NCBI GenBank assembly: GCA_045646345.1
Contig: JAZRKN010000015.1
Coordinates: 96,001 to 160,000, forward strand
Source: Candidatus Scatovivens sp.
GTDB taxonomy: Bacteria; Bacillota; Clostridia; TANB77; CAG-508
Direction of reading: 5' to 3'
DNA length: 64,000 nt
Numbering within the stretch: the stretch's first letter is position 1; each line of letters opens with the position of its first letter. Shown piece after piece: positions 32,629-61,732 of this stretch. The notes under the pieces are model-generated. The model did no database searches. It was not told the DNA's origin and saw only the letters and a list, made by a program, of their open reading frames with translations. Both the position numbers and the translations under genes were made by a program.

Positions 32629-33240
32629 TTAAAAATAAAAATCTGATTTTTTTTCATATTTTTCTCTTACTAGTTTTCTGTCTAGCATTCTCTTCTTTAG
32701 TTTACTATCATAATATATAATTCCAACTAACATTATTATACAAAAACTAAAAAAGATCTTATTTTTTAGAAGTTTCATTACTAAACCAAACCTTGGCATT
32801 GTATATACTACTTTTCCGATTATATTGCCATATTTAACAATTTCCTCATCATTAACTTCATTATTATCACCTTTAGTGATAAACGCCTTTTGTAAATCAG
32901 TATTTATAGTTTCTGAAATTCTGTGAGTTATAATTTCACCTTTTGCATTTTTAAATGTTATTATATTTCCTACTTTATATTCTTTATTTTCATAGCCTTT
33001 TTTTACTATTATAATATCATTTATATTAAGTCTCGGAGACATACTTTCTGATGTTACCGTATAAATTTCTATATTTAAAGAACTAGGAAATATTCCTGAA
33101 TTCCCTAGTTCTAATAATATTACTAATAAACTAAATAAAATTGTAGGAATCAACATTATATATAGCATTATAATTAAAATCTTTTTTATCTTTTGATTTC
33201 GTTTTATATTTTTAGATATAACATCTGATTCATATCTCAT
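32629..33240 (-). CDS. sipW: Signal peptidase I, SipW/ER-type (S26B)
   Basis: VTSESMSP (Ser), ITHRI (His), TKGDNN..D; TM helices on both sides. Confidence 0.85.
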   Translation of the reverse strand: MRYESDVISKNIKRNQKIKKILIIMLYIMLIPTILFSLLVILLELGNSGIFPSSLNIEIYTVTSESMSPRLNINDIIIVKKGYENKEYKVGNIITFKNAKGEIITHRISETINTDLQKAFITKGDNNEVNDEEIVKYGNIIGKVVYTMPRFGLVMKLLKNKIFFSFCIIMLVGIIYYDSKLKKRMLDRKLVREKYEKKSDFYF

Positions 33241-45169: not shown

Positions 45170-46201
45170 TTAACTAATTGGATCTAAACTAAAGCTTAAA
45201 TCATATTGGATATCTGTACCAGATGCGTTGTTTTCACAGTCAACATCTTGTCCTTCAACCCATAAATAAATTCTATATTTTGTAATACCAGCAGCTAATC
45301 CTCCATTCATTTCCATGTTTGGAATTCCAGAATTTGGTGTAGCCCAAGTTGGTTCAACAGCTTGGAATGAATTTGAATCATTAGCAGCAGTTGCATCTCC
45401 TAAAACAACACCAGTTACTTCAGCTTTAACAGCATCATATTCAATTGTAGGATTTCCAGCACCTGCAGTGATTGTTGCCCATCCTAAAGCGGCTGCGTTA
45501 TTAACACCGTTTTGAGTATGTGTATCAGCATTTGGTTCCCACATCATAACAGTTCCACCAGCAGTTGGTAACGCTTGAACTGTATTTGCATCAGCATCTG
45601 TAGCAGCTGTATTTGGTCCTTTTATTAAAGCAACACGAGCTGCATTTGCTAAACCTTTAACTGTATTTGGTTCTGTTACTGCACCTGACATATATAATTT
45701 ATCAGATTCTGTTTCAACTTTTAGAAATACATCGAATGCCATGTAATATCCTTTGTCGAACTCACCTGTTGTTGTAACTTCATCAGAAGCAACATCATTT
45801 TGTAATGTTGTAGTTAACAAATATTCACCATAGTTTGCACTACCTGTATCCATTTCAGCTTTTACATTACCATAGAACATTTTTAAATGTCCATTGTTAT
45901 CTAACTCTAATGCACTAGAAACTGGTGCCATTATTGTTGGTAATTGGTTTACTGAAGATGCATATGTATCATATGCATTAAATACATCATCTTTTGTTAA
46001 TACAGTTTTCCAAGTAATACCGTCAGCAGAAATTTGTAAACCACTTGATGTAGCAACTGTAACATCAATAGCATCGATGTTAACTGTTCTGTTGGCTGTA
46101 AACCAAGCGTATGTTGACATGATTAAAAGTACGGCTGTTAATAACAAAATCATAAGTAAATTGTTTAATCTTTGTTTACTTGCTTTTGTTTTTTTCTTCA
46201 T
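45170..46201 (-). CDS. SipW-class signal peptide protein (TasA/camelysin-like fibre subunit), candidate major subunit
   Basis: LLIMSTYAWFT signal end; ARVAL and IYLWVEGQDVDC C-terminal motif; AAGGAGG RBS favours ATG at 46201. Confidence 0.8.
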   Translation of the reverse strand: MKKKTKASKQRLNNLLMILLLTAVLLIMSTYAWFTANRTVNIDAIDVTVATSSGLQISADGITWKTVLTKDDVFNAYDTYASSVNQLPTIMAPVSSALELDNNGHLKMFYGNVKAEMDTGSANYGEYLLTTTLQNDVASDEVTTTGEFDKGYYMAFDVFLKVETESDKLYMSGAVTEPNTVKGLANAARVALIKGPNTAATDADANTVQALPTAGGTVMMWEPNADTHTQNGVNNAAALGWATITAGAGNPTIEYDAVKAEVTGVVLGDATAANDSNSFQAVEPTWATPNSGIPNMEMNGGLAAGITKYRIYLWVEGQDVDCENNASGTDIQYDLSFSLDPIS

Positions 46202-46215
46202 AATATCCTCCTTCA

Positions 46216-46914
46216 TTAATCAATATGCTCTTCTGTAATGTCCATATGCATTTTCATCTCGCCACCTAGAAGTGCATTCGTACAATCAGGGTCATCCCCT
46301 TCAATAAATATTACTATTGTAAACTTATCAATAGATCCAGGCGCGAAATTTTGTCTTGATTCTAGCATTACAGTATCCTCAGAATAAAAAGCTTTTGTAC
46401 CTTCTTCTGGAGCCTCAGTATGACCATTTAATTTGCCATAAACAGTTTGTTCTCCATTAAGGTATACCATAACTCTTATCGCTTCATCTACATTTAGAAT
46501 AACATCATCAACTAAAATTGAATACCAGTAGTTGATACTTTCTTTGCCTTCATTTTCAACATAAAAGGTATATGCTATATAGTTTTCCCCATTATGAGAA
46601 CCTTCTCCGGCTGTATCAAGGTCTTCTGGCAACCATTTAATTGAGATATTATCCATACCATCCATTCCAGTAGCCTCCAACCTTTTTGACACCACTTTTT
46701 CACTTAATCTTTCGTATATTACTATTCCTTTTTCCCAGCTTAAATTTTGATCCAAAATAACAGTAAAGTTACCTGCATCATAAATCATTGATAAAATAAA
46801 ATATAGTAAAATAAGAAATAGAAGCAAAATCAGTAGTGCCAATCTAATCAATCTTATTCTAAAATCGCGCTTATAAATTTTGTTAGAGGTTGTTTTAAAT
46901 TCAAACTTTGTCAT
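46216..46914 (-). CDS. Membrane-anchored TasA-like accessory subunit
   Basis: N-terminal TM; AIRVMVY and IVIFIEGDDPDC match the C-terminal motif of the adjacent subunit. Confidence 0.65.
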   Translation of the reverse strand: MTKFEFKTTSNKIYKRDFRIRLIRLALLILLLFLILLYFILSMIYDAGNFTVILDQNLSWEKGIVIYERLSEKVVSKRLEATGMDGMDNISIKWLPEDLDTAGEGSHNGENYIAYTFYVENEGKESINYWYSILVDDVILNVDEAIRVMVYLNGEQTVYGKLNGHTEAPEEGTKAFYSEDTVMLESRQNFAPGSIDKFTIVIFIEGDDPDCTNALLGGEMKMHMDITEEHID

Positions 46915-47233: not shown

Positions 47234-48181
47234 ATGAAAAAAAAGAAAATTTTCAGAATAATTTTGTTAATATTAATTTTAATTTTAGCATTTTTAACAA
47301 TACGAGATACATATTCAAAATATATAACTCAAGCAGGAAATTCTTCTACTTTAAATATCTCTAAATGGAAAATTTTATTAAACGATCAAGACATTCGAAA
47401 TAATGCTGATTTTACACAAGATATTGCAATTGAATATGAAAACAACGAACATATAGCTGATGGATTTGTAGCTCCTACAACAAAAGGAAAATTCAATTTA
47501 TCATTAGAATCAACTGGAACATCATTACCATATGAATATGAAATCCAACTAACAGATGATAAACCTTATGAGGCATCGCTAAATGGAATCACTTTTGGTG
47601 ATGGTACAAATCCTTATTTATATGAAGTATTTTTAAAAGTTACCAATATACTCTCTGATTTTGATACTTGGGAAATGGAAATTGAAGTGCCAGACAATAT
47701 TATAGAAGCTAGTTCAAACTTTAGTATAGATAATTCAACTTATAATGAAACCTATACAGTTGAAAATAATATTTTAAAAATAAATTCATCTGAATCATTA
47801 TCTCAAAATGCAGAATTATCACTAAAACTTGTATTTGCATTTACAGATGATATTGATTTTGAACTTAGTAATATACGTATAAATGACGAACTTTTATACA
47901 ATCCAACAGATAGAATTGCAGACTTCAGAATCACATCATATACCATAAATGGAATAAATCGTAAAGTACCAGCACACACAAGTAAAATAACAGGACTTGT
48001 TACACCACCAGATGATTTATCTCAAGAAGTCAAGTATGATTTTTCTTTTACTGTAGAATGGTATGATGGAGATAATAATGTATATGACAATTTTAATGAT
48101 GTAGCAGCTATAAAGCAACTTTTACCAGCTACTATTCCAATTACATTGTCAGTTACTCAAGTTTTGGAGGACGCACCATAA
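47234..48181 (+). CDS. SipW-class signal peptide protein (opposite strand)
   Basis: IRDTYSKYIT signal end; ISKWKILLND, VAPTTKG, VEW..D motifs shared with 55812-56480. Confidence 0.75.
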   Translation: MKKKKIFRIILLILILILAFLTIRDTYSKYITQAGNSSTLNISKWKILLNDQDIRNNADFTQDIAIEYENNEHIADGFVAPTTKGKFNLSLESTGTSLPYEYEIQLTDDKPYEASLNGITFGDGTNPYLYEVFLKVTNILSDFDTWEMEIEVPDNIIEASSNFSIDNSTYNETYTVENNILKINSSESLSQNAELSLKLVFAFTDDIDFELSNIRINDELLYNPTDRIADFRITSYTINGINRKVPAHTSKITGLVTPPDDLSQEVKYDFSFTVEWYDGDNNVYDNFNDVAAIKQLLPATIPITLSVTQVLEDAP

Positions 48182-48201: not shown

Positions 48202-48236
48202 AAAAAGAAGTAGATTTTAAATCTACTTCTTTTTTT
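48202..48236. terminator. Bidirectional intrinsic terminator
   Basis: AAAAAGAAGTAGATTT-T-AAATCTACTTCTTTTT between convergent genes. Confidence 0.85.
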
Positions 48237-48253: not shown

Positions 48254-49063
48254 TTATGGATTTTCTTGACTTTGAACAGCTCTTATCTTTACTTCTATCT
48301 CTATACCATATTCTCCTGGATGGTTTTGATCAAAATCATAAGCTTTATTTCCCCAATATGTATCAATCTCATCTGCAGCATCTATTACAGTTTGATCATC
48401 ACTATCTACTTCATAATCCCAATTAACTTTAAACTTTAATTCAACATCCTCACTTCCAACTTCCATTGGTACTGGTGTTCCATTATATAAAGTATCATCT
48501 ATATATATTTCTATTTTAAATGGATAAGTTTTTAATAATTCAAATAATTTTTCTGAACTATATATTTCTTGAACACCTCCATTATCGTAGGTTGTCTCTC
48601 CAGCTATATATTCATCTTCAAAAATTCTCATTGATAAAATATCACAAGAAAGTTCTGCTTCTGTTTCTCCATTATTTTTTGCATTAATTAATTGAACTTT
48701 TTCTGTCATACCTGGAAAAATTTCTCCAACCTCAAAAAGAAAATTTTCTGTTTGGTCTCCACTTGATAACTCAAAACTCCAGTTTTTTACGTGCATTGAG
48801 ATATCCATTGATACAGTTGATATATATATAAACCACGCATAAGTATTAGCAATCAATGTTAAAAGTAAAATTAAAACTGTTCTTATTTTTAATCCTGAAT
48901 TCAACATTGAGCTATATCTTTTTCGTTTTTTCTTTTTTGAACTATTTAGAGTTTTTTCTGGCTTGTTTTCATCTTCATTTTCAATTGTTTCTTCTATTGC
49001 ACTATATAAAATTTCATTTTCGATATCTTCATATAGTATAGACTCTAAATCTTGAAAATCCAT
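48254..49063 (-). CDS. SipW-class signal peptide protein with long acidic/basic N-terminal extension
   Basis: LLTLIANTYAWF after about 60 cytoplasmic residues; IFPG, VNWDYE..D..DTYWG; GAAGGAG RBS before ATG at 49063. Confidence 0.75.
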   Translation of the reverse strand: MDFQDLESILYEDIENEILYSAIEETIENEDENKPEKTLNSSKKKKRKRYSSMLNSGLKIRTVLILLLTLIANTYAWFIYISTVSMDISMHVKNWSFELSSGDQTENFLFEVGEIFPGMTEKVQLINAKNNGETEAELSCDILSMRIFEDEYIAGETTYDNGGVQEIYSSEKLFELLKTYPFKIEIYIDDTLYNGTPVPMEVGSEDVELKFKVNWDYEVDSDDQTVIDAADEIDTYWGNKAYDFDQNHPGEYGIEIEVKIRAVQSQENP

Positions 49064-49099
49064 AATAGCTCCTTCCATTTATAATATTAGAATTTATTT

Positions 49100-49771
49100 T
49101 TATTCTTCATCATCTTCGTCGTCTTCATCATCTTCGTCATCTTCGTCGTCTTCATCATCTTCGTCATCTTCGTCGTCTTCTTCATCTTCTTCATCTTCGT
49201 CTTCTTCGTCTTCTTCATCTTCTTCTAGTTCTTCATTTTCATCTCTACCAGATTTTAATTGCAAGAAGAATAATACCGCAAAAGGAATAAAGAATACAAC
49301 ATAAAATGCTGTCATATTATTCATCAATTTTGTCAATAAACTTATCAAAACGCATTTATATATTACTTTTCCATAAATTTGATCACCTGTAATAGTAGGA
49401 TCTTCAGCAGGATTTGCTATACCTTTTGTATGGAAAACTCTTCCTCCAATAGATTCTTCTATTTCAATAATTTGGTGTGTTACAACTCTCCCAGCAAAAG
49501 AACCATGTTCGCCTAAATAAGTTATATCATCTCCTACTTTTAGAGTATTTGGATCTTGTTCTTTTACAATTAAAACATCTCCAACTTGATATTTTGGAAT
49601 CATACTTCCTGTTGCAACATTAAATACTCTAAAACCACCAATTGTTTTTTCATTATTTGAAAATCTTTGCAATGCAAGAACTGCAATTATTATTATTAAA
49701 AAAATCGCACATAAATATTTAATAATTGAAATTATCATACCTAGTGGTTTTAAATTTAACTTTTTCTTCAT
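49100..49771 (-). CDS. sipW: Signal peptidase I, SipW-type, with poly-Asp/Glu tail
   Basis: VATGSMIP, VTHQI, TKGIAN..ED; C-terminal run of about 45 D/E residues. Confidence 0.85.
   Translation of the reverse strand: MKKKLNLKPLGMIISIIKYLCAIFLIIIIAVLALQRFSNNEKTIGGFRVFNVATGSMIPKYQVGDVLIVKEQDPNTLKVGDDITYLGEHGSFAGRVVTHQIIEIEESIGGRVFHTKGIANPAEDPTITGDQIYGKVIYKCVLISLLTKLMNNMTAFYVVFFIPFAVLFFLQLKSGRDENEELEEDEEDEEDEDEEDEEDDEDDEDDEDDEDDEDDEDDEDDEE
49103..49225 (-). repeat. Imperfect 9-bp tandem repeat encoding (EDD)n
   Basis: TCTTCGTCG/TCTTCATCA/TCTTCGTCA units in tandem. Confidence 0.85.
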
Positions 49772-49816
49772 TATACTTCCTTTAAAATTTATTTAGGATT
49801 ATGGCCCTATCACCAT

Positions 49817-50935
49817 TTATTCTCTATTAATTTGTTGAACATATTTTCCAATATGTTTTTTAAATATAGCTTGAATTTCTTTATTTGTAACTTGCTTTTT
49901 GTATTTTACTATCGTAAATTGCTTACTAACCAAATTTCTCAATTGGTCTTCCGTTATTTGATCATTAACATCAATAACTCTTTCAACAATATTAGCAATT
50001 AATTGTTCTATTATTTCTTTTTTACGTTTTTTTCTAAGTTCTGGATTCTCAACATTTTGTAAGATCAAATAATCTAATAAGAAAGTTTCATCAGCATATT
50101 TTTTTGATTTTCCTCTTTCTTTATATTCCCTTACTTTGTTGTCCATTTCCCCTTTAGATTTTACATCCATTTCATTAATAAGGAAATCCCAAAGTTTAAC
50201 TGCATATTGGAAATTAACATTTTTTAATATCATGTTTGTTTTCTTAAGAGGTGGAGTTATTAGTGTTACGTGAGCTGCTTCTAGTTCTTGATAAGTAGGA
50301 GAAAATGTTAAAGCAATAACTTCTCTTTCTAACATTTTTATTCTATCTAATAGTTCATTTCTTTCATCTTGCGCTGTTGTATTTTCAGAAGCAGATGTCA
50401 AAAGTACTTGGATATCTACTTTATTTTTTCCATTATACGAACTTCCAACATAGTCCATCTTTTTGAACTCGTTAGAACTTACAGATTTATCTTCTAATAT
50501 TTTCTTTTTTTGTTGTCTTATAATAAACAACATTCTTTGAATCAATGTATAAATAAATCTGTTCTCATAAGTATTAAATGTTTCTTCTTTAAAAACATTT
50601 AGCATTTTTCCTGGTTGAACATCACCTTCTTCAGTAACATCTTCAATAAAACCAGCATTTTTTGATAAATGTTTTATCGCTTCTACTGTAACTTTTTTTA
50701 TTTTTTCAATTTTAACAACTTCTTCTTCATTTATAATAAGCCTCATAGGGTTTCTTAAAATATTGTCTAAATACTCAATAGTATCTTCCATTTTTTCTAC
50801 CCAAAGTTCTTGATTTTTTGGCTTATCTGTTTCAACTCTAACAGTCATTTTTGAAGATAGTTTGCTATTAAATGCATTAATTTTTCTAGAATCAGTATCT
50901 GCATATAATTCAAAAACATCCAAAATTTTATCCAC
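49817..50935 (-). CDS. DUF2357 (McrC N-terminal-like) protein, no nuclease domain evident
   Basis: EETFNTYENRFIYTL and TNMILKNVNF..AVKLW motifs; directly downstream of the McrB-like gene; GTG start with AAGGAGG. Confidence 0.7.
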   Translation of the reverse strand: MDKILDVFELYADTDSRKINAFNSKLSSKMTVRVETDKPKNQELWVEKMEDTIEYLDNILRNPMRLIINEEEVVKIEKIKKVTVEAIKHLSKNAGFIEDVTEEGDVQPGKMLNVFKEETFNTYENRFIYTLIQRMLFIIRQQKKKILEDKSVSSNEFKKMDYVGSSYNGKNKVDIQVLLTSASENTTAQDERNELLDRIKMLEREVIALTFSPTYQELEAAHVTLITPPLKKTNMILKNVNFQYAVKLWDFLINEMDVKSKGEMDNKVREYKERGKSKKYADETFLLDYLILQNVENPELRKKRKKEIIEQLIANIVERVIDVNDQITEDQLRNLVSKQFTIVKYKKQVTNKEIQAIFKKHIGKYVQQINRE

Positions 50936-50954
50936 TGTTTCCTCCTTAGAATTA

Positions 50955-52505
50955 CTATCCTAATTTCTTTAGTCTCAAAACGTATTCAATACATTCTTTC
51001 ATTTTGCCTTTTCCAAATGTTTTATCTAAGAATGTAACAAATCCATCAATTTCATCTTTAATATAAGCAATATTTAATTGTTCGAATTTTCTTAAAATCT
51101 TTTTAGCTATGAAGTAATCTATTCCTTCAACTTCATCTCCACCACAAGCAACATACGCTGAAACGAATTTTCCTAAGTGACTAACAATACGGTTACCAAA
51201 TGCAACTCTAAAATGTTGTATTACGTAATCATCCATTTCATTAATCTTTTTCCAATTATCTTCAGAAACTTCATGTTCTGCTCTAGCTTGCATAAATAAT
51301 TTATCTAAATAACTGAAGTTAATATCCATTGGTGGTGTATCTTCAGCTTCAAATACTTGTCCTTTATCGTTAATATCTATAGGCATCGCTCTATCGTAAA
51401 CCTTATCAGTTACCATAAATGTAGAGTCGTCATTGTTGATTGTTCCGATATACCAAGTATTTGCTGGTATCTTAATTCTACCATTTGTTATATGTTTTGG
51501 GTCATTTTCCCAAGGACTAGCTACAACCTCAATAATCCACTCATCTCTATTTGGCATCTCTAGAATAGATAACATTTCAGCGAAATAGTATTCAACACGA
51601 GCAAGGTTCATCTCGTCTAGGATTACTGTATATACATCATCTGTATATGTAGCTGTATATAAACATTCTAATAATTGTGTCTCATTAAATTTCTTTGTGA
51701 ACTCGTTGAAATATCCAAACAACTCTGTTCTATCTCTCCAAGACGGTTGTACAGATACAACGCAAGAGTCATGTTTTAAGAATTTTCCCCAAGCATAAGC
51801 AAGAGATGTTTTACCTGTACCAGAGATACCTTGTAGAATAACAAGTTTTGTTGATGCAAGACCAGCTATAAATATACGAATTAATGGTAATGCATAATAT
51901 AAATGTAATCTTGATGCAGCAAATTGTCTAAATGTTTCACAAAGCTCTTCAAGTGTAAAATCATTATTATAATTTTGAACTTTATATTTAGCAAACTTTT
52001 TATCAACAATTGAAAGTCTTGTAAATCTTACACCATCACCTGGATCTAATTCATCTTCTTTTTTCTTATCTCCATCAGCAGCTTTTGTTTTATCTACTGG
52101 AAGTTTTGAAGATTCATTTGGACTTAATCCTAATTGTGAAACTTTCATAGCAAGAATTTCTTCTCTTTCTTTTGTCATTGTTTCAACTCTTTTATTTAAG
52201 TCAGCAACTTCTTTTAACATAGTTTCTTGTTCTACTACTGTTTTTCTAAATCTAATATACTTTCTTAATATTAAATATACTAAAACAACTGTTAATATAA
52301 GTATTGCAGCAACTGCTAATACTGCTATAGCCACAAGTATCCATTCTTGTACAGAAAAATCATTCTTATATTCTTTAATTAAATGTATGTAAGCTGGAAT
52401 ATCAAATAATTGTCCAATTCCAGTTACTAATCCTGTTAATATTGTTTTTAATCCAGTGAAAAACGCGTCTAAAAATTCATATAAGAATCTTACATATGTA
52501 TCCAT
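50955..52505 (-). CDS. Membrane-anchored McrB-like AAA+ NTPase
   Basis: Walker A GISGTGKT, VQPSW.D..ELFGYFN, Walker B ILDEMNLARVEYY, GTINNDDST, DKVYDRA; N-terminal hydrophobic helices plus coiled coil. Confidence 0.85.
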   Translation of the reverse strand: MDTYVRFLYEFLDAFFTGLKTILTGLVTGIGQLFDIPAYIHLIKEYKNDFSVQEWILVAIAVLAVAAILILTVVLVYLILRKYIRFRKTVVEQETMLKEVADLNKRVETMTKEREEILAMKVSQLGLSPNESSKLPVDKTKAADGDKKKEDELDPGDGVRFTRLSIVDKKFAKYKVQNYNNDFTLEELCETFRQFAASRLHLYYALPLIRIFIAGLASTKLVILQGISGTGKTSLAYAWGKFLKHDSCVVSVQPSWRDRTELFGYFNEFTKKFNETQLLECLYTATYTDDVYTVILDEMNLARVEYYFAEMLSILEMPNRDEWIIEVVASPWENDPKHITNGRIKIPANTWYIGTINNDDSTFMVTDKVYDRAMPIDINDKGQVFEAEDTPPMDINFSYLDKLFMQARAEHEVSEDNWKKINEMDDYVIQHFRVAFGNRIVSHLGKFVSAYVACGGDEVEGIDYFIAKKILRKFEQLNIAYIKDEIDGFVTFLDKTFGKGKMKECIEYVLRLKKLG

Positions 52506-52519
52506 TTTTTACCCTTCCT

Positions 52520-53515
52520 TTATCCTTCTAAAATTTTTGTTTTTTTGTATTGTTTTTTATTTACATCTTTAGTACTTACTATAATACGATCAAAAATTTC
52601 TAACATCTTAATTTCTTCTTTAGAAAGTTTTGGCATATCATCATTTGTTTTTACACAGAATCTAAATCCTTTTCTTATAACTTCAAATAATTTTTCTTTG
52701 TTTCTTACAAAATCATCATACTCTATTTCAAACAAAATTTTATCTTGAGCAGCTTGATTTTCTAATATTCCTAATAATTGATCTAATTTTTTCTTCTTAT
52801 TTAATAATTCTGGTGCAAAATCGCAAACATACATCTTATTAAAATTACCAACAATAACATCTTTTAAAGCTACAACTGCTGCCATTGGATATTCAACAAA
52901 CAATTTATCTTCACTTGTTATGTCAGAATTAAAAACTTCTTCTACAATTTCTTTACTATAAATTTCTGGAAATTCAAAAAAGTATTTTAATTTTACTCTA
53001 TAATAATTTGGATTTTTTGAATTTATTTTTCTAATATCCAAATCAAAATCTTCTGAATAATGCATGTCTAGAAAATCATCAACTTGCTCTAAATCCTTAA
53101 TTATTAAATCTAAAAATTCTTGTTTAAAATTGTCATCGTCAGAAGCTTTTATATTAAATTTTGTTACTCTTTTTTCTGCTATAGCATCTACAACATCATC
53201 TAATTCCATATTATATCTTACATTATCAAAGTAAAAATAATATTGAAATAAAGATAGATGATCTAATATTTGATCTGTACTTCTTGGAGTTTTTTTCATT
53301 AGCTTTTCGCTTTTTTTCTTAACAGCATCATATATTCTTCTGTAAAATATTCTAATAGAATTATCTACTCCATAATTATAGTATCTTGCATCAATATAAG
53401 TTTGGATTAATTCTTCAGAAATATTTTTATCATATCTACTTTTCAAAATTAAACTCATATATTTTTTAAGTCTTTTTTGTGTAGCATTAATATGCTTTTC
53501 AAAAATATTATTCAT
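52520..53515 (-). CDS. Hypothetical protein, C-terminus resembles a degenerate EAL barrel
   Basis: KILFEIEY..F....L...GFRF pattern; no EAL/DDFG catalytic motifs. The ORF is solid, the fold call is weak. Confidence 0.45.
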   Translation of the reverse strand: MNNIFEKHINATQKRLKKYMSLILKSRYDKNISEELIQTYIDARYYNYGVDNSIRIFYRRIYDAVKKKSEKLMKKTPRSTDQILDHLSLFQYYFYFDNVRYNMELDDVVDAIAEKRVTKFNIKASDDDNFKQEFLDLIIKDLEQVDDFLDMHYSEDFDLDIRKINSKNPNYYRVKLKYFFEFPEIYSKEIVEEVFNSDITSEDKLFVEYPMAAVVALKDVIVGNFNKMYVCDFAPELLNKKKKLDQLLGILENQAAQDKILFEIEYDDFVRNKEKLFEVIRKGFRFCVKTNDDMPKLSKEEIKMLEIFDRIIVSTKDVNKKQYKKTKILEG

Positions 53516-53532
53516 TAAACACTCTCCCTATT

Positions 53533-54591
53533 TTATATGTATGATACATCCACAACTGGTGGCGTGTTATTCATATTTGGATATGTATAATTTTCAGATG
53601 CATTTACTTTATAAAATTTAATTACCTTACTTTCTTCTGCATTCATCTTAAATTTAATCTGTTTAACATATTCATATCCCGGGTCAGTTCCTATAATTTC
53701 ATATTCTAAATCATCATCTTTATCAGCAGCTATATAAACACCTGCTGTTGTATCTAGTCTAAGAACACTAGAATCAAAAGCAAGTGTTATAATCATTGAA
53801 TGGCATTTTTCTTTCTCTGCTTCTGACAATCCCAAATAATCATTTATTGTTATTGAAGTTCCTGCAGGAAAAATTCCAACAGCTTCTTCAGTTATATAAT
53901 AATCTAATGTATTTGTTACAACAACTTCACAGTATGGGTCATATTCTTTATCTTCTATTTTATAACTCATACCTAAAGTTCCTATTTTAATATTGAATTC
54001 ACCAATCAATTCTGCAACATATGGTGAAGTCGATGTTGCTGTTATTTTTACATATATATAATCATTATTTTGTAAATTTGATGTTGTCTTTGGTTTTACA
54101 GAAAATTCAAAACTATCTTGGTTATTTGAAGATTGAAAAATCGTTCTTGAAAGAACATCTCCTTGATTTAAATTTTCTATACCTGTTATATAAAAATCTA
54201 TAATATCATCAGAATATTTAGTCCCATCACTTTTATAAACATCATATTCATATTCAATATTATAATTAATATCTACTTTAGAAACTTCACTAACATTTTT
54301 TCTACTATTCATGTTTACAGTAACTCTATATTCTTCAACCCCAGACCAGTTGTCAGACTCAAAATGCGCTATATTTGAAGACAATTTATCACTATTAAAA
54401 TAAAACTCTTTAGAAGTTAAATAATAGTTTCTAATTGATTTATAAACATATCTAGACAAAGTAACAGAGCCAGGCACTATTACTTTTACTAGCATATATA
54501 TTATTATGAATAATAGTATAAGCAAAAATAGCATTTTCTTTATACCACCATTTTTTCTCCTGATTCTTGTTTTAACTTTTCTTTCTTTCAA
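53533..54591 (-). CDS. SipW-class signal peptide protein
   Basis: Basic N-terminus, hydrophobic helix, GSVTLSRYVY, then FYFNSDKL; TTG start. Confidence 0.65.
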   Translation of the reverse strand: MKERKVKTRIRRKNGGIKKMLFLLILLFIIIYMLVKVIVPGSVTLSRYVYKSIRNYYLTSKEFYFNSDKLSSNIAHFESDNWSGVEEYRVTVNMNSRKNVSEVSKVDINYNIEYEYDVYKSDGTKYSDDIIDFYITGIENLNQGDVLSRTIFQSSNNQDSFEFSVKPKTTSNLQNNDYIYVKITATSTSPYVAELIGEFNIKIGTLGMSYKIEDKEYDPYCEVVVTNTLDYYITEEAVGIFPAGTSITINDYLGLSEAEKEKCHSMIITLAFDSSVLRLDTTAGVYIAADKDDDLEYEIIGTDPGYEYVKQIKFKMNAEESKVIKFYKVNASENYTYPNMNNTPPVVDVSYI

Positions 54592-54609
54592 TTTAACCTC
54601 ACATCTTTA

Positions 54610-55287
54610 TTAAGTATTAGGAACATCGATTCTTTGTTCAGAATCAACAGTTATTTCTATACATTCAATTACATTTTGATATTGAACTGAATTATACCTT
54701 GCTGGTAATGTTACTTCTAATATATATGTATTAGTTTCAGGTGTTGTATAATAAAATTCATCAGAATCAGTTATACCTTCAGCTTTTTTATCAGCAGATT
54801 GACTAGCAAACACTAAATGCTTAAATATAGTATTATCTTCATCTAAATACATATTTTGATTTTGAACAGTTTCTATTTCTAATATGTTTGTAAGATTTTC
54901 AACATCCATTCCTTGATTTTTATACATTTTGTATTCTAAAGGTAAATTTGTTGTTGTTCTTATTTTCAAATCATAAAGCATATCAGTTTCTGTTGTTACA
55001 TTTTCTCCCGCATCATCTACATAGTAGTTTGAAACAGTAAATGCTATTCTTCTTGTTTCACCTGGAATCATCTCTTCTATTGAAATAACATTTGTTAAGT
55101 ACTCATCCTCTAGAGTATAAAAAGCAACATCTATATCAGCTGTAGAGCTTGCTTCTGACTCATATAATGAATAAGAACTAAATAAAATTCTATGTAACAT
55201 ACACACAATTAATATAGCAAGTAGAAATTTAATTCTACGTCTTGCTCTTATTGCTTTCCTTTCTCTTAAGTATTTTCCTCTAATCAT
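54610..55287 (-). CDS. SipW-class signal peptide protein
   Basis: FSSYSLYESEASSTADIDVA, MIPGE..FTVSN motif. Confidence 0.7.
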   Translation of the reverse strand: MIRGKYLRERKAIRARRRIKFLLAILIVCMLHRILFSSYSLYESEASSTADIDVAFYTLEDEYLTNVISIEEMIPGETRRIAFTVSNYYVDDAGENVTTETDMLYDLKIRTTTNLPLEYKMYKNQGMDVENLTNILEIETVQNQNMYLDEDNTIFKHLVFASQSADKKAEGITDSDEFYYTTPETNTYILEVTLPARYNSVQYQNVIECIEITVDSEQRIDVPNT

Positions 55288-55305
55288 ATAATCCTCTTTC
55301 GAAAT

Positions 55306-55791
55306 TTATTTTTCTTGCTTTGGTTTTTTAAATAAAAGCCATATTGCAATAATTGTTATTAATATTGCAATTATTACTTGTGGAGATTTTAGCACTTCAA
55401 ACCATATAGCCACATTCGCTATTATAAAAACTACTTTTCCTACTATATCTTTTTGTGTTATAGGATCGTCTTTTGAAGTATTAGCATCTCCTTTTGTTAT
55501 TATTTCATCTTCATTTATTTCTATAACTCTATGAGTTACAAAATCTTCTTTATATCTATAAGTTATAATGTCATTTTCTTTTACATCATCTGTAAGTTTT
55601 ACTATAACAATATCATTTATCTTTATTGTATCTTCCATACTTCCTGTTATAACTTGAAATATTGTATAACCACAAAAGTTAATATAATCATAATTAAATA
55701 TTTTTAGTTGTGCATAACAGTATGAAGCAATAATAAAAATAATCACTAATATAATCGTTATAAAATCTATCTTTTTTAGAAATTCTTTCAT
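55306..55791 (-). CDS. sipW: Signal peptidase I, SipW-type
   Basis: VITGSMEDTI, VTHRV, TKGDAN..DD. Confidence 0.9.
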   Translation of the reverse strand: MKEFLKKIDFITIILVIIFIIASYCYAQLKIFNYDYINFCGYTIFQVITGSMEDTIKINDIVIVKLTDDVKENDIITYRYKEDFVTHRVIEINEDEIITKGDANTSKDDPITQKDIVGKVVFIIANVAIWFEVLKSPQVIIAILITIIAIWLLFKKPKQEK

Positions 55792-55811
55792 TCATACCCC
55801 ATTTAGTGAAT

Positions 55812-56480
55812 TTATTCACCAGTCCATTGAATTACATCTACTTTTATTGGAAGCTTAATTAAATTATTTGCTATAGACCCAATTTTTGAATCTATATCAT
55901 TATTTGCTTCGTTATCTTCCCATGTAACTTTAATTTCCAATTCATCAATTCTATCTGTTTCTCTTTCAGACATAATATCGTCTAATTCTTTAATTTTACT
56001 TATAACAATATTTCCTTCATCATCTCTTGGCAATTCAATATCTACACCATTTTCTTTTATGCCTGTTATTTTCAAATTTATTCTATCAGCTAAATTTTCT
56101 CCTGTAACCCCGACAGATTCTAGCATTTCTGCTATTTTCGAATCATCAATGGTTATTGAATATTTCACTGATACTTGTGTTCCTGTTGGATCTACTTTTA
56201 ATTTAAAATAACCACTCATTCCAGGTGCAACTTTGGGAGGTTTTACATTGGGTGCTGACTCCCAGTCCCATGTAAAATCATCAATTTCAAAAACACCTAT
56301 TTCTCCATTTTCATCTGGTACAGTTATATCTTTATCATTAATTTTTATAGACCAATTTGCTGCCGTTTCATTTATCACACCAGACGCTTTGTTGGTATAT
56401 TTTGAATATGTTGAACTAATTATTAACGCTAGTAAAATTAAGATTGCTATAAGAATAACTATTCTTATTTTTTTATTCAT
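55812..56480 (-). CDS. SipW-class signal peptide protein
   Basis: ISSTYSKYTN, AANWSIKIND, KVAPGMSG, VTWED..D..IG. Confidence 0.78.
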   Translation of the reverse strand: MNKKIRIVILIAILILLALIISSTYSKYTNKASGVINETAANWSIKINDKDITVPDENGEIGVFEIDDFTWDWESAPNVKPPKVAPGMSGYFKLKVDPTGTQVSVKYSITIDDSKIAEMLESVGVTGENLADRINLKITGIKENGVDIELPRDDEGNIVISKIKELDDIMSERETDRIDELEIKVTWEDNEANNDIDSKIGSIANNLIKLPIKVDVIQWTGE

Positions 56481-56485
56481 TATTT

Positions 56486-57622
56486 TTACTCACCTTTTTT
56501 ATTTTTTTCAGCTTCTAGTTTTTTCTTTTTAGCTTCTATTAAAGCTTTCTTTTCTTCTGGTGTCATTGATTTTAATTTTGCTTCAATTAGAGCTCTTTTT
56601 TCTTCTTCTGTCATCGATTTCATTTTTGCTTCAATAGCAGCTTTTTTCTTTTGTTCTTCTGTTTGTTCTTGTTTTGGTTCTTCCTTAGTTTCAATTTTCA
56701 CTTCAGTAACTTCTGTTTTTACTTCAGCTTTTATTTCAACTTTTTCTGGAACTACCGAAACAACTTCTTCTTTTTTCTCTTCAACCTTCACTTCAGTTTC
56801 ATTTTTTTCTTCAACTTCAATTTTTACTTCCGTTACTGGTTCTTCTTTTTCTACTTGAACCACAACAGCTTTATTTTCTTCTATCTCAACTTTTACAGGT
56901 TCTGTTACAATTTCTACTTTTGGTTCTTCTGTTTTCTTTTGTTCTTCTACAATCTCTTCAACCATTTCTTTTATTGTTTCATCTTTTTTTACATTTTCTA
57001 CTTTATCAGATTTTGTAGATGTTGATTTTTTCTTTTTCTTCTTTTTCTTTTTCTTTTTCTTTTCAGCTTCTTTTGTTTCACGAACTTCTATTACAACATA
57101 ATTTAGAGTATATATAAAAGCAACCAAAGAAGGAAATACACCTAAGAATAAGAATCCCCATTTAGATTCTAATATGCTCAACACTTTACCTACATTAGGA
57201 ATTACTGTTGCATTTTCTGCATTTCCTATGTAGTATGAACTTGAAAATCTATAATCTCCTTCAACTGTATAAGTAAACTCTGTATCTGTTACTCTTTCAG
57301 CTTTAATAACCTTGGCATAGTTTATAGTAGTCACTCCATAAGTTGTTCTATAAAAGAAGATTACATCTCCTTCTTCAACTCGAGCTAAACTTCCTTTTGA
57401 CACAATAACTAAATCTCCAACCGTATAATCAGGTTCTAGATCTTCATCAATGATTGGTATAAGAGTACTTTTACCAAATTCTGTTACCTTATATTCATTA
57501 AAAGATAGCAAACAAATTGTGACAAATATTATCAACAAAATGTATGCAATTATTACGAAATTTTTAATAAATTCCCAAACTTTTTTCAAACTTTCCATCT
57601 CATCAGTCCTTTTAATCCACAT
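56486..57622 (-). CDS. Degenerate SipW-like protein with poly-Lys and Glu-rich cytoplasmic tail
   Basis: SipW scaffold (LEP.Y.VGDLVIV, EGDVIFF, IPNVGKVL) but DED in place of SGSM and no HR; K12 run; C-terminal MTxEEKxALIEAK repeats. Confidence 0.65.
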   Translation of the reverse strand: MWIKRTDEMESLKKVWEFIKNFVIIAYILLIIFVTICLLSFNEYKVTEFGKSTLIPIIDEDLEPDYTVGDLVIVSKGSLARVEEGDVIFFYRTTYGVTTINYAKVIKAERVTDTEFTYTVEGDYRFSSSYYIGNAENATVIPNVGKVLSILESKWGFLFLGVFPSLVAFIYTLNYVVIEVRETKEAEKKKKKKKKKKKKSTSTKSDKVENVKKDETIKEMVEEIVEEQKKTEEPKVEIVTEPVKVEIEENKAVVVQVEKEEPVTEVKIEVEEKNETEVKVEEKKEEVVSVVPEKVEIKAEVKTEVTEVKIETKEEPKQEQTEEQKKKAAIEAKMKSMTEEEKRALIEAKLKSMTPEEKKALIEAKKKKLEAEKNKKGE

Positions 57623-57835
57623 TTATACTTAAGAGTATATCATTATTTATTCTTATATTCAACAAGTTTTATATTTCATTTTTTTGTATTTTTGGTAATA
57701 TTTTTGTAACAAAAAAGTAATATTTTTTTGTCGCTTTTTGAAAGAAAATCCATTTACTTTTCCTTCCTCTTATATTATAATTATTCCTATAATGTAGGAT
57801 ATATTTTGAATTATTCTGCCAATATGGAGGTTGAA

Positions 57836-60800
57836 ATGGCAATAAAATCTGAAGAAGAAATAATTAAAAAGCCAACTGCATCTAGAGGAAGACCTAGAAA
57901 AGATGCTCAAGCTAGCAAAACAAAAAAATCTAGTAAAAGCAAAACAAAAAAGAAATCGACAAAAAAAGCTAGTTCTTCTAAAAAATCTACAAGCAAAAAA
58001 GTAAAAAGCACAACATTAAAAAATGTCGAAAATGTTGAGCTTATTAATGATGTTCAAATTGAAAACACTATTCCTCTTATCACTGTTTCAGAAGAAACTG
58101 TTTTAGAAGAAATAGTTGAAACATCACCTGTTGAAAACAATTTAATCGAAGATACTTTAAATTTAGTTATCGAAGAAGAATCAACAGAAGAAATCGAAAC
58201 AATTATTGCTGAAGACGAAATAATTAATTTAGATGCTCAAGAAATTGGTGAAGAATCGTTAATTGAAGAAGTTCCAGAAACTCAAGAACAAGTTGTAGAA
58301 GAAGACATCTCTTCTGCCGTTTGTGAAGAAGTAACTGAAAAGCCAAAGAAAAAACGTACAATTAAAAATCTTTCTATAAAACGTTCTATTCCTGTAGTTG
58401 AAGAAGTTATAGAATCCGAACCGGAAATTGAAGAAGAAATTATAGAAGAATCAATTGTTGAAGAACCTGTTATTGAAAAAATTATAGAACTTCCTGTAAG
58501 AGAAAAAAGAACTTTAAGATTAAATTTAGGTTCTAAAAAACAACAAGTTGAAGAACCAGTTTACAAAAAAGACGAATCTATCAATCAAAATTCTGCATTC
58601 TTTAACGAACCTTCAATATTTGCAAAATTTAATATAGATATCATCAGTACAGATGCTGATGATAATACAGAAATCCAAGATGAAATAATTGAAGAATCTT
58701 CTACTTCAGAGGAAGAAGCTTTAAATGACATCGAAATCATAGACGAAACAATCGTATTGCCAAATGATCAAATTGATGAATTAATTTGCGAAACAATTGT
58801 AAACCAAATAATAGAAGAACCTACTTCTATTTCAGAAGAAGAAAATACTCTAGAAGACTTAAATGATGAACTTTTAGAACAAACAATTTTAGAAGAAATT
58901 TCAAAAAACATTTCAGAAGAAACCATTGAAGAAGAACTTGAAAATTCTGAAATTTTAAAAAGTGTTCGTTCAATCTTAGGTGGAAAACTTGGTTCTTTAG
59001 AAGAATTAACTCAAGACGAAGAAATTCTTCCACAAGATGAACAACAAGATTTGATTGATGAACAAGATAATGTTATACTTTTCAAAAATTTAGTTGAAGA
59101 TGAAGAAATAATTGACAATGATGATAATGAATTCTTACAAATTGATCAAGAAGAACCTGAAGTATTAAAAGAAGTTGCAGACACTATCATTTCTGATGAA
59201 CCAGTATCTGATAATTCTCCTATCGGAAAATTCTTTGATAGTTCTATTCCTTCTATGACATCAACTGTAAACAATACATTTTCTAAAATTAAAAAATCAA
59301 TTTTTTCAAATATCTCTCCTATCTTCAAAAAATTCACTTTTGAAGAAGCAACTTTAATGAAACATCAAGATGAATTTGAAAATAATTATAATGAATCAGA
59401 AAATAATTTATCAGACATCCAACAAGCTTTAGAAAACTTTACACCAAATGTTCAAGCAACAACTAATATAGTTGAGATGGATATTTTAGCAGAATCACCA
59501 GCAACAATGCCAGTTATAGATACAACAACATTAGTAACAACAAACAATGATGAAATGGTTTATGAAGGTCCAGAATTATCAATTCTTACTCCAGCATCAG
59601 AATCATCTTTTGACGAAGATAAAGAATTAGATGAATTTATCGAAAATGCTGAACAAGGAATTCTTGACGATATAGAAGAGCTTGAAAATTTTGAAGAACC
59701 TATCGATGAAATTGATGAAACTGATGAAGTAGAAAATATAATACCAGAAGAAATTATTGAAGAAGAATATGATGACGAAGAGTTCTCTATTGAATCATAT
59801 TTTGGATTAGACAATGTTACTCTTGATGAAAAAGATTTAAAAAGAATTAATGCAATTGAAGACAAAATTGAAGATGAAGTTGTTGAAATCGAAGAATATA
59901 CTTCTAATCCTGATGAATTTGTTGATAAATTCTTAGAAACAAATCCAATAATAGAAGGAATTCAAGAAGAAACTATCGAAGAAGAAGCTTTAGAAGAAAC
60001 AATTCAAGAAGAAACACTTTCAGTAGAATTAGAACCAGAACAATTTGTTGATAAACTTTTAGAAGATAACATCTCTCAAGAAGAAGTTATAACTGAAGAA
60101 AATTCATCAAAAGAAGTTATTTCTGAAGAAGTACCTGAAATTATTGAAGAACCAGTTATCGAAAACAAAGAATCAGAATTAGAAAAAGCATTAAAAGAAA
60201 AAAATGAAGAACTTTCTAGTTTATCAAAATTATTAGAAACATTTACACAAACAATATCTACTCTAACAAATAGAATTACAGATTTAGAAAACAGACAAGC
60301 AGCAGAACCAGTTGTTGAAGAACCAGAAAATCCAACTTCTGATATAATCGAAGATCTTATTGAGGAAAGTCAATCAGAAATCGAAGAAGAATTAAGTGTT
60401 GACGATATTGATATTAATGATTTAGATTTAGATGACTTAGATATCGAAGACCTAGAATTTTCTGAAGAAGAATTTGAAGAACCTTCTCTTCTATCTCAAG
60501 AAAACGATGTTGAAACAGAAATCGAAACTTCAGTTGAAGAAGATGAAAAATCCGTTGAAAGTATTTTATCTGAAGTACTATTATCTAAAGATTTAGATTC
60601 TGAATTAAAAGAAGAATTATTATCTGAAGTACTTTCTTATGAGGAAAACTTATCACCTGAAGATTTAGACGAATCGTTACTAGAAGCAGCACTTTTTGAT
60701 GAATTATCTGATGAAGAATTATTAGAATTAGATTCTCAAGAAGAAAAACTTCCAGAAGAAGAACCTTTATCAGACTTTTCAAAAATAATCGAATCTTTAA

Positions 60801-61732
60801 CAAAAGCAATTACAGAGTTAGAACAAACACCAGATATTAAAGAAGTAGAAAAAACAAAAAAAGTTGTACCTCTTGCCCCACTTCCAGCTGAGTTAACAAA
60901 TTATTCTGGCTCTGAAGATAAAGCAATAAACATTCTTATTAATAAAGATGATATCTTCTCAATTTCAATATTAAATGAAACTTATGAAATTGTTGCTGAT
61001 TTTGATGGTATATCTGTTCTTTCAGAAAACCTTCATATATCAACACCAAAAAATAACTTCTTCGTAAGAGTTGGAAATAAATATATTGAAATACACAACA
61101 AAAAAGATAACTTTATTTTAAATACTAACTTTGAAGATATCGAATTTGCAAATGCTATAAACAATATTGCTTTTGCTAAGAAAAATAATAAAATAGAATT
61201 AAATATTAAAGAAGCATTTAAGTTATCTTCTGTAAATAATAAGATAGAACTTTCAATGTTAAATAAAGCAATTGCAGATTTATCTACACCGACACAACAA
61301 GCTGAAACAAAAGATGAATCTTCAATCTGTGATAACAAAACTCTTCTAATCTCAGAGGAAACACAAAAAGTATATCTTCCATATACAATAGAAGATGTTA
61401 TGAAAAAATTAAAATCAGGTGACGAATATCAAACAGTTCAAGAAGTTGTTGATAACGAATATACATTACCACTTTCTACATTCAAAATGCCTATAATTTC
61501 TAGATTCAAAGAAGCTTATAGATTCATGAGAACAAAAGAAAATAGTTCTGTATATGCAGCTGTTGATTTAGCTTTAGAATTAATGTTTAATTCTAATTTA
61601 AACCCAGCAGTAATCAGAGCAGCTAAAGATATGAAAGAATTAAATATTTATTTAGATTGCTTATACGAAAATGAAGTTGAAAAATTTGATTGCTTCAAAA
61701 TAGTATATAAAGTATTACCAAAAATAAAATAA
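57836..61732 (+). CDS. Very large acidic low-complexity protein with N-terminal AT-hook-like motif
   Basis: GGAGG RBS before ATG at 57836; RGRPRK and K/S-rich N-terminus, about 1000 aa of E/D-rich sequence, short coiled coils, globular C-terminus. Confidence 0.8.
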   Translation: MAIKSEEEIIKKPTASRGRPRKDAQASKTKKSSKSKTKKKSTKKASSSKKSTSKKVKSTTLKNVENVELINDVQIENTIPLITVSEETVLEEIVETSPVENNLIEDTLNLVIEEESTEEIETIIAEDEIINLDAQEIGEESLIEEVPETQEQVVEEDISSAVCEEVTEKPKKKRTIKNLSIKRSIPVVEEVIESEPEIEEEIIEESIVEEPVIEKIIELPVREKRTLRLNLGSKKQQVEEPVYKKDESINQNSAFFNEPSIFAKFNIDIISTDADDNTEIQDEIIEESSTSEEEALNDIEIIDETIVLPNDQIDELICETIVNQIIEEPTSISEEENTLEDLNDELLEQTILEEISKNISEETIEEELENSEILKSVRSILGGKLGSLEELTQDEEILPQDEQQDLIDEQDNVILFKNLVEDEEIIDNDDNEFLQIDQEEPEVLKEVADTIISDEPVSDNSPIGKFFDSSIPSMTSTVNNTFSKIKKSIFSNISPIFKKFTFEEATLMKHQDEFENNYNESENNLSDIQQALENFTPNVQATTNIVEMDILAESPATMPVIDTTTLVTTNNDEMVYEGPELSILTPASESSFDEDKELDEFIENAEQGILDDIEELENFEEPIDEIDETDEVENIIPEEIIEEEYDDEEFSIESYFGLDNVTLDEKDLKRINAIEDKIEDEVVEIEEYTSNPDEFVDKFLETNPIIEGIQEETIEEEALEETIQEETLSVELEPEQFVDKLLEDNISQEEVITEENSSKEVISEEVPEIIEEPVIENKESELEKALKEKNEELSSLSKLLETFTQTISTLTNRITDLENRQAAEPVVEEPENPTSDIIEDLIEESQSEIEEELSVDDIDINDLDLDDLDIEDLEFSEEEFEEPSLLSQENDVETEIETSVEEDEKSVESILSEVLLSKDLDSELKEELLSEVLSYEENLSPEDLDESLLEAALFDELSDEELLELDSQEEKLPEEEPLSDFSKIIESLTKAITELEQTPDIKEVEKTKKVVPLAPLPAELTNYSGSEDKAINILINKDDIFSISILNETYEIVADFDGISVLSENLHISTPKNNFFVRVGNKYIEIHNKKDNFILNTNFEDIEFANAINNIAFAKKNNKIELNIKEAFKLSSVNNKIELSMLNKAIADLSTPTQQAETKDESSICDNKTLLISEETQKVYLPYTIEDVMKKLKSGDEYQTVQEVVDNEYTLPLSTFKMPIISRFKEAYRFMRTKENSSVYAAVDLALELMFNSNLNPAVIRAAKDMKELNIYLDCLYENEVEKFDCFKIVYKVLPKIK

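Follow-up and report, generated by a model that had tools for sequence, protein, structure and literature searches.

We analyzed a 64,000-nt stretch of contig JAZRKN010000015.1 (hereafter, "the window") from the genome of Candidatus Scatovivens sp., an uncultured gut Clostridia-type bacterium (genome size 1.79 Mb, 96.7% complete). The analysis centered on two neighboring genes that encode a membrane-anchored McrB-family NTPase, predicted to be a GTPase, and a McrC/DUF2357 homolog (hereafter, "the partner") in which no nuclease domain was detected (Table 1). Both open reading frames (ORFs) are on the minus strand, with 19 nt between them, and the window is AT-rich (GC content 0.23–0.35). The pair belongs to a larger cluster of ~29 kb (about 32.6–61.7 kb of the window), which contains four SipW-type signal peptidase paralogs, at least nine exported proteins without a family match, a giant protein of 3270 amino acids (aa), and a divergently transcribed acidic protein of 1334 aa. 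The cluster is flanked on one side by the sporulation genes yabP and yqfD and on the other by a Clp ATPase, the flanks being sporulation and housekeeping genes according to Pfam, and among the ORFs scanned with Pfam (window positions ~32100–61800), neither an integrase nor another mobility gene was seen. Within the cluster, the two genes are part of a run of ten co-directional, tightly packed genes extending from 57622 to 48254. A consensus scan showed no terminator-like hairpin within this run, and the lone minus-strand hairpin is located at 48202–48234, which is consistent with a ten-gene operon.

An McrB-family NTPase with a predicted membrane anchor

Although no Pfam family matched the 516-aa NTPase at E ≤0.01 (AAA_5 reached just 0.036), sequence comparison clearly assigns the protein to the McrB family. 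It matched the NCBIfam McrB model NF008457 with an E-value of 1.2e−6, which is far below the 637-bit equivalog cutoff of that model, and its residues 157–378 matched the McrB chains 6ut6_A, 7vsr_A, and 6hz4_A of the Protein Data Bank (PDB) with E-values of 1.9e−5 to 5.1e−5. Its best PADLOC match was the defense-candidate model PDC-M26A (9.6e−38), and this match was limited to the shared NTPase core. The Walker A motif (GISGTGKT, residues 226–233), the Walker B motif (ILDEMN, residues 295–300), and the sequence GTINNDDST, which holds the NxD signature (N357-N-D359-D360), were identical across 26 aligned orthologs, except that the residue preceding LDEMN was V in one of the 26 and I in the others. 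In 29 more distant relatives, the signature followed the pattern GT(V/I/A)NxD(E/D)(S/T)T (e.g., GTVNMDETT). Because an ungapped pairing of the signature with the E. coli sequence NTAD is also possible, the assignment to the NxD branch rests on this family-wide pattern. The intact McrB-type AAA+ core that a preliminary description of this DNA had reported is therefore borne out by the NF008457 and PDB matches and by the intact Walker A, Walker B, and NxD motifs.

The preliminary description also held that the N-terminal DNA-recognition domain had been replaced by hydrophobic helices and a coiled coil. The first part of this claim stood: no DNA reader was found in residues 1–156, which instead comprise an amphipathic segment, a transmembrane (TM) helix, a charged linker, and a variable acidic spacer extending from the linker to approximately aa 156. 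The coiled coil proved only borderline, as the heptad score of the linker (residues 85–119) was reached by 5–9% of shuffled sequences in a heptad-versus-shuffle test that is itself crude and is not a validated coiled-coil predictor. The same crude test indicated heptad-like periodicity in residues 1–50, in which G18 and G29 are invariant. The hydrophobicity of residues 55–80 reached 3.3 on the Kyte-Doolittle scale, and five of the eight residues that immediately follow the TM helix (RKYIRFRK) are K or R, so the C-terminal side, that is, the linker and the NTPase core, is predicted to be cytoplasmic, the orientation that an NTP-using domain needs.

The McrC/DUF2357 partner

The partner matched DUF2357 (PF09823) with an E-value of 5.5e−12 over aa 40–150 only, and no other Pfam family, nucleases included, was matched at E ≤10. 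DUF2357 was present in 63/63 members of the partner family, and Y123, E124, and N125 of the TYENRF motif (aa 122–127) were invariant in all of them, as were N234 and W249; the TYENRF-containing DUF2357 region is thus retained, as had been claimed. A PD-(D/E)xK family was absent from all 63 family members and was found in 0/15 longer relatives. In the three longer relatives that were read, the extra length consisted of E/K-rich or other non-nuclease sequence. The sequence of the partner had no PDB match at E ≤10. A profile built from the 63 sequences had a single PDB match, the designed protein 8uzp_M (E-value 0.0087), which was taken as spurious.

The AlphaFold model of the partner (pLDDT 78.3, pTM 0.49) consists of an alpha/beta N-domain, a long helix, and a beta-hairpin of 14 + 14 residues (aa 154–185), followed past residue 186 by helices and a single short strand. 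When this model was compared with the PDB using Foldseek, the only high-probability rows were the McrC chains 6hz4_M (0.90) and 6ut6_G (0.66); no row reached E ≤1e−3, and the McrC rows had an E-value of 0.05. VIA aligned the model with the Thermococcus McrC chain 6ut5_G (Z 8.3, rmsd 4.9 Å, 140 residues aligned) and with the E. coli McrC chain 6hz4_M (Z 7.8, 143 residues aligned, chain residues 31–189), and the McrC rows, which spanned model residues 38–259, were among the longest alignments in the VIA list. None of the 50 VIA rows shown was a nuclease chain.

These results agree with the earlier statement that the partner ends in a helical tail without a PD-(D/E)xK motif. A nuclease fold was looked for in the C-terminus and was not detected, in a fold search that barely covered residues 260–372 (roughly the final 110 residues). 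Because this tail is also poorly conserved, the conclusion that the partner has no nuclease domain is well supported, but not absolute. The tail gave no heptad signal in the crude heptad test.

Fusions of McrC and SipW were not found in six long relatives of the partner (scanned with NCBIfam models) or in three relatives read by eye. In the distant DUF2357 relatives P0465, P0483, P0484, and P0502, repeated domains of ~100 aa flank DUF2357; one of these matches YjbR in Pfam, and none is a nuclease or a peptidase. Separately, the partner orthologs at three loci (L051, L056, and L067, from genomes G488, G556, and G540) each contain one in-frame stop codon (TAG or TAA) within the match, for which sequencing errors, pseudogenes, and start-site effects are all possible explanations.

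Conservation of the pair and block-wise gain or loss of the cluster

We compared 28 related loci, comprising 8 genus loci (8 of 9 places were fetched) and 20 order loci (20 of the 24 places that a search with the partner had located). The NTPase gene adjoined the partner gene in 27 of the 28 loci (19/20 at the order level). The sole split pair (L083/L089, G544:C1) was found in a ~1.0-Mb genome of the family, in which 22 kb of a single contig separates the two genes. The whole cluster was syntenic in the eight genus loci, with the order 331-aa gene, NTPase, partner, and SipW gene retained in 8/8. SipW-like ORFs, 95 in total, occurred in every one of the 28 loci. The preliminary description had named a location of most orthologous pairs in defense islands unrelated to sipW as evidence against its reading; the pairs were instead found within SipW clusters, and not in defense islands, in 28/28 loci. 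It had also noted the lack of methylase and other defense genes nearby, and this was upheld by Pfam on the flanks and by a PADLOC scan of 41 other ORFs of the window, which returned only generic GTPase matches on Era and generic AAA matches on Clp. No nuclease, HEPN, other effector, or methylase was found in the window, counting the 13 neighbors, the flanks, and the 41 ORFs scanned with PADLOC.

The NTPase was the most conserved protein of the cluster, with a median identity of 84% across the 8 genus loci and 63% across 19 order loci, compared with 30–55% for the other cluster proteins at the order level. Outside the order, only matches to the NTPase core domain were obtained (30–44% identity, in 43 of 400 genomes drawn from the phylum). 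The NTPase was found in 9 of the 24 other genomes of the genus, and a search of 200 genomes from the order recovered the partner in 22. The 232-aa exported protein of the cluster was present in 10/24 genus genomes, and its presence or absence agreed with that of the NTPase in 23/24; the exception, G020, is an 88% complete genome in 140 contigs. In five genomes without the cluster, clp and yqfD were ~1 kb apart in two and 12 kb apart in one; they were on separate contigs in another, and yqfD was unmatched in the last. Given this joint presence and the empty sites of ~1 kb, the ~29-kb cluster behaves as a single block that has been inserted or deleted between clp and yabP/yqfD. The cluster is thus gained or lost as a block.

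An EAL-fold neighbor, SipW paralogs, and exported proteins

The gene upstream of the NTPase gene, which adjoins it in 24/28 loci, encodes a 331-aa protein whose high-confidence structure model (pLDDT 90.5, pTM 0.87) directly shows, at the level of a predicted structure, an EAL fold in the C-domain without any sequence trace of the EAL family. All of the 50 top VIA rows for this protein were EAL domains, including those of FimX, LapD, and YdiV, and for residues 154–331 the Z-score was as high as 13.2, with an rmsd of 3.2 Å and 165–171 residues aligned. No Pfam match to PF00563 (EAL) was obtained at E ≤10, and hhalign against nine true EAL domains gave a probability of 0.05%. The Atlas provided a lead of 0.89 to a cluster in which 13% of the members carry EAL. 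Because the EAL sequence signature is gone, binding of cyclic diguanylate (c-di-GMP) by this protein is unsupported. Two GGDEF matches were obtained in the genome, whereas a canonical EAL or PilZ domain was not found. The EAL-fold gene was not found in three complete loci that carry the pair (L083, L086, and L087).

Judged by their catalytic residues and conservation, the four SipW paralogs are conserved types, which we designate A to D. Type A retains Ser and His in 33/33 sequences; the position of the catalytic Asp is occupied by I, L, or V in 28 of the 33 and by Asp in one. Type C lacks His in 25/25 sequences and has Ser in just 5 of these. Both type A and type C are conserved beside the NTPase/partner module.

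One of the exported neighbors (45170–46216) had a sub-threshold match to the SipW-cognate signal model TIGR04088 (E-value 0.097) and an Atlas lead (0.84) to a cluster with PF12389 in 26% of its members. Two types of motif, (S/N)TYAWF and (S/D)TYSKY, were seen just past the hydrophobic helix in this protein and in those encoded at 48254–49078, 47234–48181, and 55812–56480. We take these motifs to resemble the ends of SipW-dependent signals, for which the sole support is the sub-threshold TIGR04088 match. The 3270-aa protein has an N-terminal hydrophobic helix, no Pfam family, and 23–30% coverage in relatives, and it is probably a giant surface protein of the cluster. Only the last 130–250 residues of the 1334-aa acidic protein are conserved beside the cluster (in 13/20 order loci and 6/8 genus loci). 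There were no RNA runs among the 21 sequencing runs found for 48254–57622; the 20 runs that contained the segment were of DNA from animal gut or manure.

Table 1. Features of the NTPase/partner locus and its surroundings (positions in the window)
Feature	Position	Strand	Basis or remarks
Membrane-anchored McrB-family NTPase, 516 aa, predicted GTPase, NxD branch	50955–52505	−	Profile and PDB matches, motifs, TM scan
NTPase: conserved glycine-rich amphipathic/hydrophobic N-terminal segment, aa 1–50	52356–52505	−	Alignment
NTPase: predicted TM helix, aa 55–80, then RKYIRFRK	52266–52343	−	Kyte-Doolittle scan and alignment
NTPase: charged helical linker, aa 85–125, putative short coiled coil	52131–52253	−	Alignment; heptad test borderline
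NTPase: core, aa 160–516	50958–52028	−	PDB McrB matches, motif alignment
McrC/DUF2357 homolog (partner), 372 aa, no nuclease domain detected	49817–50935	−	Pfam, AlphaFold2 model, Foldseek, VIA
Partner: region modeled like the McrC N-terminal domain, aa 38–259	50159–50824	−	VIA, Foldseek
Partner: poorly conserved, mostly helical tail, aa 260–372 (one 9-residue strand, three helices)	49820–50158	−	AlphaFold2 model, alignment
331-aa cytoplasmic protein: helical N-domain and modeled EAL-fold C-domain (aa 154–331, nt 52523–53056)	52520–53515	−	Structure model, VIA
SipW-type signal peptidase, type A	49100–49771	−	Directly downstream of the partner gene; poly-D/E C-terminal tail of ~50 aa
SipW-type signal peptidase, type B, Ser-His-Asp intact	55306–55791	−	Catalytic residues in 25/25
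SipW homolog, type C, predicted catalytically dead, first operon gene	56486–57622	−	K/E-rich tail of ~200 aa
SipW-type peptidase, type D, far end of the cluster	32629–33240	−	Ser-His-Asp in 13/16
Three exported proteins, no family match, signal-anchor-like N-terminal helices	55812–56480, 54610–55287, 53533–54591	−	Interleaved with SipW type B
Exported protein	48254–49078	−	
Exported protein	47234–48181	+	
Exported protein, 232 aa	46216–46914	−	Second most conserved in the cluster
Exported protein	45170–46216	−	Weak SipW-cognate signal match and TasA-family lead
Giant protein, 3270 aa	35145–44957	−	
Cluster protein, 537 aa	33254–34867	−	
Divergently transcribed 1334-aa protein, very acidic	57728–61732	+	No family match
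Two-way terminator-like hairpin	48202–48234	Both	Sole minus-strand hairpin for 57622–48254; consensus scan only

Relationship to CoCoPALM and other known systems

A class of NxD GTPases named CoCoPALM was introduced in one paragraph by Bell, Makarova, Wolf, and Koonin (eLife 2024; PMC11090510), who deferred it to a later publication. As outlined there, these GTPases are fused to a domain homologous to FtsB, coiled coils usually occur on the homolog of McrB as well as on that of McrC, and the associated proteins of the signal peptidase family are read as pilus assembly factors; according to the same article, the residue after NxD in this branch is usually E or another D. The pair in the window matches this outline: an McrB-like GTPase of the NxD branch, with a TM helix near its N-terminus, is accompanied by a McrC/DUF2357 homolog and is tightly associated with proteins of the signal peptidase family. 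It differs in that coiled coils are weak or undetectable in the window pair. The CoCoPALM paragraph itself mentions no EAL-fold third gene, no set of four peptidase paralogs of differing catalytic state, and no insertion or deletion of the cluster as a block. In the literature searched, we found no study of CoCoPALM beyond Bell et al. and its preprint, and the announced follow-up was not found. The class is therefore already known by name, and what is added here is the EAL-fold neighbor, the peptidase types, a topology at variance with the FtsB label, and the weakness of the coiled coils.

FtsB has a topology that is the reverse of the orientation predicted for the NTPase. Homology of the N-terminal region to FtsB was not adopted, given that the NTPase had no Pfam match to FtsB or DivIC at E ≤10, that its charge bias predicts the opposite orientation, and that a table in the supplement of Bell et al. 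lists an HHpred E-value of 1.2 for the FtsB-like domain.

The NTPase core (E-value ~2e−5) and the partner model, which aligns to the McrC N-domain, resemble the McrBC systems of E. coli and Thermococcus (6ut6, 6hz4, and 6ut5). In contrast to those systems, the window NTPase lacks an N-terminal DNA-binding domain, carries NxD instead of NxxD, and is predicted to be membrane-anchored, a PD-(D/E)xK nuclease was not detected in the partner, and there is no restriction-modification context. The pair also resembles the CoCoNuT systems, which belong to the same NxD GTPase branch and whose McrC homologs are described as often lacking an active nuclease (PMC11090510). However, according to that article, genes for HEPN or other nucleases always accompany CoCoNuTs, which also have long coiled coils, whereas neither such genes nor long coiled coils were found among the genes surveyed at the window pair.

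SipW-dependent matrix fibers of the TasA type include the product of the B. subtilis tapA-sipW-tasA locus. The window cluster resembles TasA-type systems in having dedicated SipW-type peptidases next to exported subunits, but it differs from them in the number of peptidase paralogs and exported proteins, in its own McrB-type NTPase, and in the lack of a Pfam TasA match. In the sipW-bsaABC system of C. perfringens, oligomers of the TasA-like, SipW-dependent BsaA are reported to be membrane-anchored until cleaved, and their efficient secretion to need pilus ATPase genes (preprint, PMC11580942).

Two further comparisons concern single proteins of the cluster. The C-domain of the 331-aa protein has the fold of the degenerate EAL regulators FimX, LapD, and YdiV (Z 10.7–13.2), of which FimX, according to its PDB title, regulates type IV pilus biogenesis; it differs from them in its low identity (4–12%), the lack of EAL profile similarity, and the lack of a GGDEF or PilZ partner. 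SipA, a catalytically inactive pilus-polymerization factor, works with sortase-built pili, whereas no sortase was seen in the window cluster. As a signal peptidase homolog acting as an assembly factor, SipA (PDB 4N31, cited in the supplement of Bell et al.) may nevertheless serve as a model for the dead type C protein.

Proposed role of the NTPase/partner pair

We infer the function of the pair from its gene context. With moderate confidence, we propose that it acts as a GTP-driven motor at the cytoplasmic face of the membrane, which helps to process, assemble, or push out SipW-dependent surface-fiber proteins and does not cut nucleic acid. This extends the earlier suggestion that a motor from restriction systems has taken on a non-nucleolytic task at the membrane, fiber assembly being one example, for which the gene context provides support. 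Also in its favor are the McrB-family match with its NxD motif, the predicted membrane anchor, the partner in which no nuclease was detected, the retained gene order, the high conservation of the NTPase, its joint occurrence with the cluster, and the lack of defense genes in the window. The BsaA system of C. perfringens described above offers a precedent, and Bell et al. arrived at the same interpretation for the class. By analogy with the solved McrBC structures and their description by Bell et al., six NTPase subunits would assemble into a ring that their TM helices keep beneath the membrane. GTP hydrolysis would be stimulated by the N-domain of the partner, which would insert into the ring and which carries the long beta-hairpin. 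The conformational work might then pass through the TM helices and the conserved extracytoplasmic or interfacial N-terminal segment to complexes of SipW peptidases and pseudo-peptidases. Such complexes would hold signal-anchored subunits, and the ring would set the moment at which these are cleaved and would deliver them to the growing fiber, with the EAL-fold 331-aa protein as a putative regulatory subunit.

Several points weigh against this proposal. The putative hexamer, GTP specificity, and stimulation by the partner are assumptions taken from McrBC. The cluster is accessory, in that most genomes of the genus and the order examined lack it, and the best PADLOC match of the NTPase is a defense-candidate model. 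In the VIA comparison, generic helical bundles had Z-scores of 7–8.7, equal to those of the McrC rows, so the McrC fold match of the partner is not by itself decisive. None of the secreted cluster proteins matched the Pfam model of TasA (Peptidase_M73/TasA); with only the 0.84 Atlas lead and the sub-threshold signal match to connect them to TasA, the fiber itself is something that we infer. Finally, the TasA system of B. subtilis is not known to require an NTPase.

More tentatively, the CoCoPALM ring may represent a new type of fiber-assembly motor, a reading that we consider possible but rather doubtful. Such a motor would combine a tethered, McrBC-derived GTPase hexamer with a nuclease-less McrC plug and a decayed EAL-fold tuner, and would couple GTP hydrolysis to SipW cleavage and to the passage of a giant adhesin and TasA-like subunits, extruded across the Gram-positive wall. 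It would be unrelated to PilB-type ATPases, chaperone-usher systems, and sortases.

Other readings assign the pair a role without such work. As a GTPase with a regulatory function, a switch or checkpoint, it may gate SipW activity or operon output once the EAL-fold protein has sensed a signal in the cytoplasm. In other systems, pili or flagella are under the control of degenerate EAL proteins, and the fold of the 331-aa neighbor, the adjacency of its gene to the NTPase gene in most loci, and the finding of two GGDEF matches, without a canonical EAL or PilZ domain, in the genome would all fit a switch. However, the loss of the EAL signature leaves c-di-GMP binding unsupported, the EAL-fold gene was not found in the three complete pair-carrying loci mentioned above, and an AAA+ ring with a McrC-type activator would appear to be built for repeated hydrolysis cycles and not for two states; on balance, we regard a pure switch as unlikely. 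Descent from McrBC restriction systems, the NxD-branch GTPases as the closest sequence relatives, the PDC-M26A match, and the patchy distribution could instead point to a membrane-linked defense or abortive-infection module, which would guard the fiber as a likely phage receptor and in which another effector would replace the lost nuclease. This reading, which takes up the membrane-sensing defense variant offered in the preliminary description, is weaker than that of a repurposed motor. It is weakened by the lack of any effector in the window, by the fixed place of the pair inside the putative fiber operon in 27/28 loci, and by the slow evolution of the NTPase. Slow evolution of this kind is unlike that of typical defense genes. 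The pair is, moreover, gained or lost solely with the whole cluster, and the PDC-M26A match covers just the shared NTPase core, so that we consider a defense role improbable.

Least probable of all, in our view, is that the ring is an AAA+ machine for protein extraction or quality control, which would grip the long, charged cytoplasmic tails of the SipW proteins, or signal anchors left behind, and clear them from the membrane for recycling. The poly-D/E tail of type A and the K/E-rich tail of the dead type C, both of which types are conserved beside the module, are what such a machine might grip. However, tail length differs widely from locus to locus (the coverage of type C is only 0.43–0.47), and McrB-family rings are not known to thread polypeptides.

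The conserved three-gene core, consisting of the EAL-fold protein, the NTPase, and the McrC-like partner, offers a compact target for biochemistry and cryo-electron microscopy. If the proposed role is correct, a motor that once served nucleic acid restriction now powers or controls a surface-fiber pathway common among uncultured Firmicutes of the gut and rumen. This would be a fresh case in which defense machinery has been put to use in building the cell surface, might amount to a new class of pilus motor, and would explain how large SipW-dependent polymers cross the Gram-positive envelope.

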